51,772 bases of DNA from Perkinsus olseni (taxonomy: Eukaryota). The notes beneath the pieces were generated by a model. The model had not been told where the DNA came from. It searched no databases and saw only the letters and a list, made by a program, of their open reading frames with translations. The stretch is from NCBI GenBank assembly GCA_013115125.1, contig JABANN010000219.1:1-51772 (forward strand), in the 5' to 3' direction. Of this stretch, positions 38,955 through 50,865 are shown in pieces (within the stretch, counting starts at the first letter, position 1; every line of letters begins with the position of its first letter). The translations under genes and the position numbers were made by a program.

Positions 38955-41154
38955 TCAACATTCCGTTTTACGGTACTCACAGCGTACATCATCTGCAATC
39001 CGCTGCACAGAATGCAGCCGCCAAGGGTGAGCTTCTGATATGGTTGAAGGGGAGGGTGAGAGGTAGAAGGGAGAGCCGCCTCGACCTAGTAGTACAGGGC
39101 CATAATAAACCTAACGAAACCGAAGAAGCGCCTTCGCTACGGCAACCTCGTAAAGCTCACAACCTTGTACGCGTATTAAGTTCTTTACATGGTGTCACAC
39201 TACGAAGCGAGCTGAAAACGCGTACGAGCTCACAGACTGTAAGCTATACTTTCGTATCACCGCACCAAGATTCGCTCCCGCCCGGAGCAGACGTCAAACA
39301 CCCTAAGCCGAACAACTCACCACTAGTTCATCCACCAGTTGGTTTTCGATAAATTTAGTGAGTGTCTTCGCTCCGCCTTCCACCAACACTTGGAAAATAC
39401 CGCGGCCAGCAAGATCCTTCAAAACCGCCGTCAAATCCAACCCGCCATTCTCATCCACTCCAACCTCCAAGACATCGACACCCTCTAGGCCCGTTTTCTC
39501 AGCTCCCGGCCCCACCACTATCAACGTGGGCGCCTCCTCCGTTCTCAAAATCTTCGCCGTGCGCAAGATACGTCCCCTCGGATCCAAGACTACCCGTAAT
39601 GGCTGCTTTTCCACCCCTTCAACCCCTCTCACCGTCAACGAGCAATCGTCCGCTAAAACGGTGCCCACGCCGACCAATATGGCCTGCGACAGCGCCCGCA
39701 AAGTACGGTGACTATTCTCTCTCGCCCCACTACCGGTTATCCACTGACTACTACCATCCTCACAGCACACCATGCCATTGAGTGACGCCGCAACTTTGCC
39801 CACCACTAAGGGAAGCCCAGCGGTTCTATGCTTCAGGTACGCCCTTAGTGACTCTCTTATTTTCTCGGCTAAACATCCAGTCTTGACGTCAACCTGATAC
39901 GATTGGCTTATTAAATTCAACATCCGAGAGAACCCAAGGTAAGATTTACGGATCGCCCATCTTTCCAGCCTATTCCACACGAGCAGCAATTTGGTAGCAG
40001 CTACGTATATTTCACCAGATCATAACGAAGCTCGCTCGCGCGTTGCGGATGAAAATGGCCCAAGCAGTCACCTCATGGGCCACTAAGCAATGCTCAATAT
40101 GCACAGAGGCTTGAACCAAGGCCCCGCCCTTATTACTCCTTCTTGCCTCAACCGTCGTAGCCCTCGACCGGACACCTTCGGATCCGGGTCTTCCAGTCCA
40201 ACCACCACTCGTCCAACCCCAACTTTAATCAATTTCTCGCAGCATGGTGGAGTACTCCCATAATGAGAACAGGGCTCCAAGGTAACGTACGCCGTCAACG
40301 CCGACCCTTCTATACTCTCACCTACAATCGGGAAGATTAATTTCAGACTTCCTCTGACCCGCTGGGAATACGAACTTTAATCGCTGGTTCGATGATACAA
40401 GTAAACCGTGGAGCGGAAGTAAATGTAGTACACTGCACACAGTAGAATTTACATAGCCTACAGTGCACAACACACTTCGACTATAAACTTCAACTAACGA
40501 TGAAATATGAACTTTCCATCACGTAGTGTACGCAGCTAAGACTGCCTTATGTACCGAGAGCAACAGCTTGCACTCCACATGCAAGTTCTACCGAATGACA
40601 AATGTACCGTGCCATGCTCCTCCCACTAGCGAAGAGAAGCCCAACCCAGGCCGTACTATCTTGCCTACCTCTCTCCTCCATGTCCCTCAATGCATTGATC
40701 TCAGCATGCGGTCCTCCCTTTCTGACATGATGCCCCTTACCAACTACTTTGCCATTTTGCACCAGAACACAGCCCACCCACGGATCTGAGATCATCAGAA
40801 CGTCGGAACAGTATGCTTCATGTACTCGAGAATCATACTTGTGGCCCGCGACTATGAAAATAAAACGATTCTACCGGTAAGCACCACTTACACGAGTCGT
40901 GTAACACGACGGCGCGATACGGCATTATTATCCAGTGAAGCTACAGGAGGAAATTCAAATACGACAGCGGTGCCTAGCTGCCAACAATCCTCTCCGTATT
41001 TCAACCGTTCAGCATTGGTCTGTCGTAGCAGACCGCGAGCCCCGCCGCCCTGTATACTACTTGGAGGAGTAGTTATCCTTCCCATCTCTGCCTCTGCTAA
41101 GGCCATCCTCATGAACGTCTCATCGTCCGTCTCCGCGTCGGTGTGCTCAGACAT
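38955..41154 (-). CDS. ribD: Bifunctional riboflavin biosynthesis deaminase/reductase RibD, 5 exons
   Basis: Exons ~41154-41061, 40785-40669, 40321-40137, 39893-39321 and 39110-38955. Motifs: FMRMALAEAEMGRITTPPNPWVGCVLV, HAEINAL, YVTLEPCSHYGSTPPC (Zn deaminase); KVAASLNG, SQWITG, AILVGVGTVLADD, VLVEGGA, VYYGPVLLG (reductase). Confidence 0.96.
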
Positions 41155-41376
41155 TATAAAACCAATTTCCTTCCTCCCATTCATTAATCGCATTAACAAC
41201 AACTCCATCACTTGAGGAAACATCGTGGGCAGGGTTACTGGATAAAACCAATGAGTAGGTATGATGTCGGCATCCCGCTTTCGACATGTAGTCTCATAGA
41301 TCGTAAAGCGATTCTCCCGGCATGTCATTATCCGCTAGGAGTTAAACCCTCACCATAATTCTGAAATTATTAAGGA

Positions 41377-41450
41377 ATAGTCTCAGGGAGAATCGAACCC
41401 GCGTCACTCGAGTGACAGATAAGAAGCTTAACCGACTTAACTAGCGGCTC
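41377..41450 (-). pseudogene. Degenerate tRNA-Asp-like sequence (pseudogene or SINE head)
   Basis: The reverse strand reads TAGTTAAGTCGGTTAAGC (A-box-like), loop CT-GTC-AC and GCGGGTTCGATTC (B-box), but the stems pair poorly. Confidence 0.5.
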
Positions 41451-41643
41451 AAAAGCAAATGAGTATGAAAAGCGCCGCAACAAAATGAGATTAGTTTCGC
41501 CTAACCTAGTTTCGCGATAGAGTAGTTGGCGTGCCTTCGCCCTACTGCTGCGGACGATGATACTGAACTACATGGCGTCGTGATTGGAGATGATAGCCGG
41601 ATCCTAGGCAGTCTCTTTTGAGCAGTAACTTGTTGTTGTTCCA

Positions 41644-48954: not shown

Positions 48955-49040
48955 GACGAGTCCTCAACGGTGGAGACTTCACCGTTCTGAGAATGTGGTA
49001 CGTGGAGGGCCCGGGTTCGAACCCGGGTGCCAGGTTTTTC
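48955..49040 (+). other. tRNA-like remnant (T arm and B-box followed by T-run)
   Basis: A CCCGGG-TTCGAA-CCCGGG hairpin, a TTCAC/GTGGA stem upstream and TTTTT downstream. The acceptor stem does not pair. Confidence 0.35.
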
Positions 49041-49715
49041 TGCATTTTCACTTAGCGTGCATGCCAGCATCGTCAGACTTCAACGGGACGCTCCTGCTCT
49101 TTCTTATTCTTTCCCGTCTTCCTTGAAATTCGATCCCGTTTGATGATGTCCGTTTTTGCGTCACACCATTTGGGTACAAGTGTGAGTGGACGACAATAGG
49201 GTGGTTAACTCGAGATGTTGCCTACTGTATATAAAGTTGTGAATTTCTCTGTCGTATTCGTAGACCACTCGCAAACAATGCTCGATTCACATTTGTCGCC
49301 AGGAAAGTCCTACTAGAAGCATCTTGTGACTTCGATGAAATCAAGGTGAAGCTGAACTTGACGGGTGACAACCATAGCTCATTGAACTGAGAAAGGGTTC
49401 TGATATTCAATCCTCGTTAGTGTTGATTTCGATTGGAGTTGGTGTGTGCGAGTTCATAGTCCAACGGTGGTCTGCCGGCTTAGTTTGTCGTTCACCGATG
49501 AGCTCTGCTCTTGGGGCTTTATGCACACATCGGTCACGGGTTAGTGGTGTAAACTGATTCTCAGATGGTTCGTCGAAACGCTTGGTTTTTTCTTTCACGT
49601 TTGAACTTAGTAGATATCGTGAGGAATTACTGCTGATGGACTTCGCAGATCGGACACATTCCGAATCTGATTCCAGTTGACCTTGTTTTCTCTCCGTCTC
49701 ATTTTCGCCTTTCCA

Positions 49716-50865
49716 ATGGCTGAGGAGTCTATCCGTGGTTTTGCTCTCCCTGGCGAAGTCGACGGTACCGGGTTGAAAATTGGTACGTATCACACGGCTT
49801 CTAGAGTCCTCTACTGTGGCGAGCCTGCAGGTATCGTGAGGTCGTCGTGGAACGCTAAGGTGATGGAGTGTCTGGAAGAGGGTGCTCGGGACGTCTTGGT
49901 GAATTGCGGTGTGAAGGAGGAAGACATCATAACAGAGTAGTCCGCACGCGCCTTCCGCAACTGCATTGGTTACTGAGGTTGCAGCAGTGTTCGAGCAGGC
50001 AAGAATCGCTCGGTTCAGATGCGTTGCTGGGGCATATGAGATTCCTTTCACTGTGCAGTTGTTGCTGGAAAAGACCGAAGTTGACGCGGTCATCGCCCTC
50101 GGTTGTCTCATCAAGGGTGAAACTATGCACTTCGAGTAGGGCAGAGCTCGCTACCGCCTGTTCAAGCATGTCCGGCTCGGCCTCGTACAGGTACATCTCA
50201 GAGGCGGTCACGCATGGTTTGATGCGCCTTGGCCTCGACTACAAGAAGCCCGTCATTTATGGAGTCCTGACTGTGATGAACGAGGAGCAGGCCAAGGCCC
50301 GCTGTGGGCTGTTGGGCGACTCGGTAGTCACAGATGCCACTTCCGCCAAATTCATCAATTAGTTTTTGTTGAGACTACCTTCGAGGTCGATACTCATGTT
50401 AATAATGCCATACACTATACTCAGCGAAAGCGGATGGTCATAAATAAGTATAAGATCAATACGGTAACTCGATTGTTTATAATATATTATTCATAGTGAT
50501 GAATACTAGTATTATTATCATCCATCGAGATAAAATCATGGGCGTTTCACCCGTGTTGTGTAAAACGCTAGTTATGACGCGTTATCGCGTTAGAGTTTTT
50601 CGCGATATTGCGTTTCACGCGGGCGTTGTGACGCGAAGTGTTATCTCTACGCAACATACCGCCTTTTTTCGCGAAAAACACTTGAAATTGCTTTACGCGT
50701 TAAACAGGTGAAACTCCATAGTAATGTCATAAACTATTTTTATTCAACTGTCGGGCTGTCGTTCACGGACTTTGCGCTATTCCTCAGGTCCATCATAACG
50801 AGGCGCGGGAGTGGGCCAAGACAGCTATACGTCAGTGCAACATTGCTCAAAAGTATAAATGCTGA
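49716..50865 (+). CDS. ribH: 6,7-dimethyl-8-ribityllumazine synthase, 5 exons
   Basis: Exons ~49716-49782, 49831-49936, 50019-50135, 50191-50323 and 50788-50865. Motifs: [74 protein letters not shown]. Confidence 0.96.
50540..50717. mobile_element. MITE-like element in the last ribH intron
   Basis: Terminal inverted repeats GGCGTTTCACCCGT...GTAAA and TTTAC...ACAGGTGAAACTCC flank an interior rich in ACGCG/CGCGA repeats. Confidence 0.55.

Follow-up and report, generated by a model that had tools for sequence, protein, structure and literature searches.

Does a eukaryotic nuclear genome keep the dedicated pathway of riboflavin (vitamin B2) synthesis in one place and, if so, by what route did the genes come together? 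The question is raised by a contig of the alveolate clam parasite Perkinsus olseni (JABANN010000219.1, assembly GCA_013115125.1), analysed over its full 51,772 bp and called the window below. Within it, 11.4 kb (38955-50362) hold four intron-bearing genes, ribD, ribE, ribBA and ribH, that jointly encode the six catalytic domains of riboflavin synthesis recognised by Pfam. We find that this is a eukaryotic nuclear cluster covering the whole dedicated riboflavin pathway, and that it is real and expressed.

Four adjacent genes encode the riboflavin pathway

Between 38955 and 50400, nine of the ten stop-to-stop open reading frame (ORF) pieces matched the expected Pfam family; the tenth, a piece of ribE, was left unmatched. 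The minus strand carries RibD_C (E 3.5e-37) and two dCMP_cyt_deam_1 pieces at 39303-40870, then GTP_cyclohydro2 (two pieces) and DHBP_synthase at 45050-46298. On the plus strand lie two Lum_binding pieces at 42101-43471 and DMRL_synthase at 49933-50139. The original prediction, made from the sequence alone, had proposed four adjacent spliced rib genes with all six domains at this place, and the Pfam matches bear it out. The four genes do fit inside ~12 kb; the end of the cluster, set by that prediction at 50865, has to be moved, since the coding sequence of ribH stops at 50362.

The strands alternate (- + - +), giving two divergent pairs, ribD with ribE and ribBA with ribH; for this reason the genes are not an operon. 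Across the four gene models we count 23 introns, all of them GT-AG, with a median length of 53 nt. The composition of the window is even (GC 0.48-0.55). With a P. olseni genome size that we take to be tens of Mb, the chance expectation for four given genes to fall inside 12 kb is ~1e-10.

The positional order D-E-BA-H had been likened to the rib operon of Bacillus and Clostridium. As an order it is indeed shared: 34 of 80 fetched bacterial loci are collinear with the Perkinsus genes and hold the same four genes and six domains. In Bacillus subtilis the operon reads ribD/G-ribE/B-ribBA/A-ribH. The likeness does not extend to strand and transcription. A bacterial rib operon lies on one strand and is polycistronic, whereas the Perkinsus genes alternate in strand, contain 23 introns and have their own mRNAs, that of ribE being trans-spliced.

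Conservation was assessed at 104 alignment columns, each kept in 95% or more of the 40-78 bacterial homologues compared. The window proteins are identical there at 91, among them 37/39 in RibD, 28/31 in RibE and 16/20 in RibH, which differs by F>W, P>A, V>L and V>I at the other four. The claim that the catalytic motifs are intact does not fully hold for ribBA, which in this haplotype is altered at two conserved places, described further below.

Spliced transcripts of the cluster

For transcript data we used assembled contigs of four public runs, X1, X19, X2 and X12, from four studies, chosen among 19 matching runs. RNA is on record for X12 alone; the RNA nature of X1, X19 and X2 is the tool's guess. 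Contig depth cannot rank expression, and uncovered parts (for instance 47750-49549 in X19, or ribBA in X12) were not counted as silence.

The contig joints listed, 15 of 25, fall in ribE (three), ribBA (nine) and ribH (three). All are GT..AG, or CT..AC where the gene is on the minus strand. Every one of these 15 agrees with the models, and 15 of the 23 model introns are seen as joints. X12 contributes joints of ribE and ribH together with a spliced ribD contig. The check that had been proposed, splicing the genes with transcript data, was made on public-run contigs: spliced forms of the rib genes are present in four runs, one of them recorded as RNA.

Gene ribD (38955-41154, minus strand) encodes a bifunctional pyrimidine deaminase/reductase of 374 aa. 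Its spliced model has five exons, 41061-41154, 40669-40785, 40137-40321, 39321-39893 and 38955-39110; the exon placed by the contigs at 39319-39891, with its joint to 40135-40319, is present in both X12 and X2. In a single chain, RibD joins an N-terminal zinc deaminase, in whose translation the motifs HAE and PC..PPC are visible (HAE, PC..C in general form), to a C-terminal RibD_C reductase, which is the bifunctional type of bacteria and plants. The model is 94.9% identical over 374 aa to the annotated P. olseni protein P0264 and 100% identical to annotated P0261 over the first 324 aa. P0261 lacks the last 50 residues of the reductase domain because its annotation reads through the last intron. 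It is listed in GenBank as hypothetical; RibBA is already named there.

Riboflavin synthase is encoded by ribE (41644-43471, plus strand; 238 aa), with two Lum_binding repeats and five exons whose reading frame was checked: 41644-41736, 42164-42328, 42491-42607, 42656-42725 and 43200-43471. The joints 41736/42164, 42607/42656 and 42724/43199 were found in all four runs; the remaining intron, 42329-42490, was deduced from contig arithmetic and loose contig ends. An X2 contig of ribE fits the window from 41624 onwards, and its first 11 letters have no counterpart in the genomic sequence. All but one of these 11, together with the AG, agree with the 3' terminus of PmaSL2, a 21-nt Perkinsus leader given in PMC3101222. 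The genome reads CAG at this point, and the AG at 41624-41625 (plus strand) is the acceptor for the spliced leader. The ribE mRNA bears a Perkinsus spliced leader, and hence expression runs through separate mRNAs rather than a polycistronic one. Taken with the spliced contigs, the leader shows that the mRNAs of the cluster are separate and are cis- and trans-spliced.

Two further features of ribE are recorded here as observations. At 43380-43471 (plus strand), the C-terminus of RibE is a Gly/Ala-rich hydrophobic stretch of ~30 residues followed by basic residues; by its residues it resembles a membrane anchor at the C-terminus, a feature that would be unusual in riboflavin synthase. In the second intron (42329-42490), several X1 and X19 contigs depart at 42425-42458 with 255 unrelated letters, and an Rfam family of miRNA hairpins matches below threshold (33 bits against a gathering score of 101.7). 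This intron probably contains a repeated or palindromic element.

Gene ribBA (44926-46915, minus strand; 427 aa, 13 exons) encodes a fusion in which DHBP synthase precedes GTP cyclohydrolase II, the latter domain carrying its CxC zinc motif. By coordinate, its introns are 45007-45058, 45227-45269, 45392-45437, 45533-45583, 45648-45699, 45827-45871, 45983-46121, 46249-46292, 46360-46405, 46468-46511, 46617-46707 and 46785-46837. Nine are supported by joints in X1, X19 and X2 and the other three were placed from sequence. One X19 contig of 2079 nt spans 47649 to 44865 across the gene, and the exon sum of the model equals the stretch between its mapped pieces. Over 423 aa the model is 100% identical to annotated P. 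olseni P0249. Upstream lies a 5' untranslated region (UTR) of 734 nt (46916-47649, minus strand), closed in all three frames and covered by the pieces 46837-47649 (X19) and 46877-47650 (X1). The mRNA contigs of ribBA terminate at 47649/47650, immediately after an AG.

Finally, ribH (49716-50362, plus strand) encodes a lumazine synthase of 153 aa in four exons, 49716-49782, 49831-49936, 50019-50135 and 50191-50362, one of which carries the DMRL_synthase match (E 1.9e-13). All three introns were seen as joints in all four runs, X12 included.

Spacers between the genes

Start codons of the divergent pair ribD and ribE are 489 bp apart (41155-41643), and this spacer is a candidate bidirectional promoter. 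The convergent ribE-ribBA spacer (43472-44925) includes the 3' UTRs and three ORFs of 83-89 aa; an X1 contig extends from 43671 into the last exons of ribBA. Between ribBA and ribH lies a divergent spacer of 2066 bp (47650-49715) with two ORFs of 96-98 aa, over which X1 contigs run at 46877-47650 and 47727-49704. In total, six spacer ORFs (83-98 aa) and four flank or antisense ORFs gave no Pfam match at E <= 0.1, in keeping with the claim that no recognisable unrelated gene separates the rib genes.

A flavin mononucleotide (FMN) riboswitch leader is common, although not universal, in bacterial rib operons. None was found in the whole window at the Rfam gathering score, nor in 38500-51000 at E <= 1; neither tRNA nor riboswitch was found in 38000-51772, where the sub-threshold miRNA-family match in the second ribE intron was the single hit.

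Linkage in other Perkinsus assemblies

RibD and RibBA occur on contigs of equal size (51,772; 104,344; 15,636 and 29,704 bp) in four P. olseni assemblies, and in all four their accessions differ by exactly 2, which implies one annotated gene between them. The RibD exon is 95-97% identical to P. olseni proteins and 81% identical to a Perkinsus chesapeaki protein. The RibD of P. chesapeaki (P0001), from an 18.8-kb contig, has an identity of 76%. Beyond its RibD part, ~220 C-terminal residues of P0001 match nothing in the window; P0001 is probably a chimeric gene model. Scanning metagenomes with the RibD exon returned 80 loci with a best identity of 42%, none of them a Perkinsus-like locus.

A second P. 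olseni type of RibBA (P0122, P0123 and their cluster mates), 78% identical to the first, is located on other contigs, with no partner RibD listed beside it. Either a further locus or a haplotype that has diverged strongly could account for it.

Fused Rib proteins in other protists

Physical linkage of these enzymes is not confined to Perkinsus. The protein P0008, whose eukaryotic origin is putative, combines RibE, deaminase, reductase, DHBP synthase, GTP cyclohydrolase II and lumazine synthase in one chain of 1262 aa (order E-D-B-A-H, by a Pfam-type domain scan). We know of no description of such a six-domain riboflavin protein. It is encoded on a 64.6-kb contig. Look-ups in the atlas gave no usable match for P0008, and generic bacterial RibD clusters for P0154. 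Shorter fusions are D-B-A (P0023 and P0002), B-A-D (P0026), B-D (P0007) and E-D (P0014 of Balamuthia, P0003, P0004 and P0011). For prokaryotic rib fusions, a catalogue is offered by Henry et al. 2016 (PMC4921024).

As in Perkinsus, the same enzymes are physically linked in these protist proteins, and the RibDs of fused forms fall into one clade with that of Perkinsus and with some bacterial ones. They differ in being single open reading frames with the order E-D (several of them putatively eukaryotic), where Perkinsus has separate genes in the order D-E. That rib linkage is widespread in protists as fusions tempers the uniqueness of the Perkinsus cluster and raises the question of shared ancestry.

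Phylogeny and composition of the rib genes

Among 160 bacterial and metagenome loci, the best identities were 46.6% for RibD, 48.5% for RibE, 43.2% for RibH and 42.3% for RibBA. In composition, the rib genes (GC 0.51-0.55; 0.55-0.65 at third codon positions, GC3) resemble three neighbouring ABC genes (0.50-0.51 and 0.55-0.60). A recent "domesticated operon", one of the two origins that had been suggested for the cluster, is unlikely in view of this native composition and of bacterial identities of 40-48% at best over the 160 loci.

In a RibD tree with few named bacteria, Perkinsus falls in a clade (support 98) with all 13 named eukaryotes. When 78 named bacteria were added, that clade (99-100) also included RibDs of Actinomycetota and Chlamydiota type. 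A clade supported at 100 contains Perkinsus, 16 eukaryote or fused RibDs and bacteria of these two types; the nearest bacterial RibDs to Perkinsus come from metagenome-assembled genomes of Actinomycetota and Chlamydiota. The Perkinsus group itself includes three sister sequences of putative eukaryotic status and sits beside these bacterial RibDs, not inside the eukaryotes. A scan of genome contigs with the three sisters gave at most 45% identity, with no close match in the prokaryote species set. Forcing RibD to be monophyletic with the eukaryotes costs 2.84 log-likelihood (lnL) units and is not rejected (p-AU, of the approximately unbiased test, 0.37). The dinoflagellate RibDs of Polarella and Symbiodinium are sister to that of Perkinsus in no tree.

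For RibE, the best tree found places Perkinsus together with six fused-form RibE domains (lnL +4.18, p-AU 0.596). In the RibH tree, Perkinsus is paired with the lumazine synthase domain of the six-domain P0008 (SH-aLRT 98.8). The trees leave room for, without proving, a shared descent with the fusions seen in other protists. These results speak against recent transfer; between an old inherited linkage and a secondary assembly, the per-gene trees that had been called for do not decide.

Weighing the explanations

We give a probability of about 0.78 to the reading that the locus is a genuine P. olseni nuclear cluster of four dedicated rib genes, in two divergent pairs and separately spliced, with a linkage that leans towards the old. 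Under this reading, RibBA, RibD, RibH and RibE would convert GTP and ribulose-5-phosphate to riboflavin, with the phosphatase encoded elsewhere. The enzymes would be cytosolic, as the catalytic domains of RibD, RibE and RibH begin right at the N-terminus; in ochrophytes, the riboflavin pathway is described as plastid-located in a passage of PMC11528492. Two shared upstream regions would permit pairwise co-regulation of ribD with ribE and of ribBA with ribH, and tight linkage would hold a complete, mutually dependent pathway together. As to age, we lean weakly towards an old linkage, its ancestry shared with the fused Rib proteins (E-D, D-B-A, B-A-D, E-D-B-A-H) and leading back ultimately to an operon-like array.

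Several observations weigh against this reading, beginning with ribBA. The window RibBA begins 33 residues later than the 460-aa form of P. olseni (P0121), and ~23 codons of P0244 are absent from it (46899-46985, minus strand), the flanking matches lying in different frames. The absent codons include the start codon of the other alleles and a segment that the two RibBA types both conserve, and the N-terminus of the DHBP synthase domain is incomplete; when the lost N-terminal piece was looked for across the window, nothing rose above noise. In a conserved loop of GTP cyclohydrolase II, the window protein reads EGRD (at about 45390-45440), a G-to-D change. Among the ten other listed P. olseni RibBA entries, eight have EGRG and one EGRD, and in one the motif was not found. 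Since ~23 conserved codons are absent and EGRD replaces EGRG, the window allele of ribBA may be impaired. The N-terminal loss and EGRD recur together in P0250, which comes from another assembly. All Perkinsus RibBA entries have RENECD where bacteria have G. As for transcripts, X12, the sole run recorded as RNA, has no cover on ribBA.

Linkage and descent add to these points. The conservation of the cluster is seen within one species, P. olseni, and among the entries listed, five of nine of the RibD type, like five of nine type-1 RibBA ones, come from contigs of 0.6-22 kb for which a partner is not listed. Between the two divergent spacers, common motifs do not exceed what shuffled sequences give (common 10-mers: 0 observed, 1.8 expected). 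In two trees, Perkinsus RibD lies outside a branch in which the other eukaryotes are joined by 15-23 bacteria (97 with FastTree, 87 with IQ-TREE), and RibBA groups with the fused forms at a support of 48 only. A first, free and quick RibE tree placed Perkinsus among bacteria; we set it aside, since the likelihood of the constrained tree is higher. Finally, both P0008 and the three sisters of Perkinsus RibD are eukaryotic only putatively.

How, then, did the four genes come to be neighbours? It is possible, if the less likely course, that they were inherited vertically as dispersed genes, joined by rearrangement in the Perkinsus lineage and kept by selection for co-regulation or co-inheritance. 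Alternating strands in two divergent pairs look more like eukaryotic bidirectional gene pairs than like the remnant of an operon, and the positional order D-E-BA-H would arise by accident in 1 case out of 12. Nor do the fused proteins of other protists share that order, as they have E-D and not D-E, and dinoflagellate RibDs are never sister to that of Perkinsus. Such a secondary assembly is opposed by the fusion of the same enzymes in several protist groups, according to which linkage either recurs or is old, and by the trees in which RibH pairs with a fused form and RibE is allowed to. A more specific history strikes us as improbable: an early eukaryote would have received a bacterial rib operon in a single ancient transfer, from a donor similar to Actinomycetota or Chlamydiota, and both the Perkinsus array and the multi-domain Rib proteins of protists, amoebozoans and choanoflagellate-like forms among them, would go back to it. 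The linkage would then have lasted very long, in most lineages as gene fusions, and Perkinsus would hold the only known unfused array in operon order.

Quite unlikely is a fairly recent transfer of a bacterial ribD-ribE-ribBA-ribH operon into the Perkinsus lineage, followed by the gain of introns and promoters. Gene content and positional order are those of the commonest bacterial operon (34 of 80 loci), RibD is of the bacterial and plant bifunctional type, and its nearest bacterial relatives belong to Actinomycetota and Chlamydiota; yet best bacterial and metagenome identities of 42.3-48.5%, 23 introns and a GC and GC3 equal to those of the neighbours are hard to reconcile with such an event. 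It would also require two single-gene inversions, no FMN riboswitch appears even at E <= 1, and monophyly of RibD with the eukaryotes is not rejected. Misassembly of the contig, or its contamination by bacterial DNA, is scarcely credible. Nothing was found in its favour beyond the fragmentation of the assemblies, with contigs of 0.6-133 kb, and it is contradicted by the GT-AG introns and the Perkinsus spliced leader, by the same RibD/RibBA spacing in four assemblies, by X1 contigs that cover the ribBA-ribH spacer, and by eukaryotic genes and a tRNA array in the flanks. Conversely, the introns, the leader on ribE, the neighbour-like GC and GC3 and the spliced contigs in four runs support what the original prediction had proposed, a eukaryotic gene cluster for vitamin B2.

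Neighbouring features in the window

Upstream of the rib genes lie three paralogous half-transporters of the ABC-2/ABCG kind (703-3477, 5139-8048 and 17381-20281, plus strand). Each is a single uninterrupted ORF of 924-969 aa, and Pfam recognised ABC_tran and ABC2_membrane on two of the three. A link of these transporters to flavin transport would be pure speculation. Seven tRNA matches, also on the plus strand, are found at 10967-11038 and 21233-22400, six of them arrayed in tandem at spacings of 186 and 264 bp. Exon-sized matches on the minus strand at 24147-24839 and 25100-25510 correspond to a serine carboxypeptidase S10 and a rhomboid domain. Elsewhere in the window, Pfam was run on 10 of the 23 ORFs of at least 130 aa, a scan that genes with small exons would escape. 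At the far end, contigs of X19, X2 and X12 fit 51700-51750 alone, a 51-bp piece with loose ends on both sides, which is a small exon of a further gene.

A riboflavin cluster among eukaryotic gene clusters

The yeast BIO cluster is a gene cluster of eukaryotic primary metabolism. Fungal GAL and DAL are likewise named as eukaryotic metabolic gene clusters in the relevant part of PMC4347624. As in Perkinsus, nuclear genes of a single pathway, not homologous to one another, are neighbours there and have separate promoters. The P. olseni genes differ from all three in their alveolate host, in covering an entire vitamin pathway minus the phosphatase, and in following the order of a bacterial operon. 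With at least three adjacent non-homologous genes of one pathway, they are an addition to the eukaryotic metabolic gene clusters. The locus had been put forward as undescribed, and in the literature searched we found no paper on a eukaryotic rib cluster.

A bacterial-style pathway array in a eukaryote is also known from the enterobactin operon, for which the portion of 10.1101/399394 that treats it names Enterobacteriaceae as donor and closely related Wickerhamiella/Starmerella yeasts as recipients. In contrast to that transfer, with its known donor as told there, Perkinsus offers no identifiable donor, native composition and intron-rich genes. It also differs from the bacterial rib operon itself: the Perkinsus cluster is without an FMN riboswitch and its proteins are at most 48.5% identical to bacterial ones.

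To our knowledge, riboflavin is not made by animals. According to PMC4501334, apicomplexans lack the pathway, which chromerids possess. For these two reasons, riboflavin synthesis sets this parasite of molluscs metabolically apart from its hosts.

Clusters of complete primary-metabolism pathways are rare in eukaryotes, and fungi and plants supply most of those known; with its full set of vitamin B2 genes in bacterial order, this alveolate adds an example from elsewhere. Together with the Rib fusions of other protists, it makes a tractable system for how operon-like arrangements survive or re-form in eukaryotes, and it raises the question of whether clustering and fusion are alternative answers to one selective pressure.

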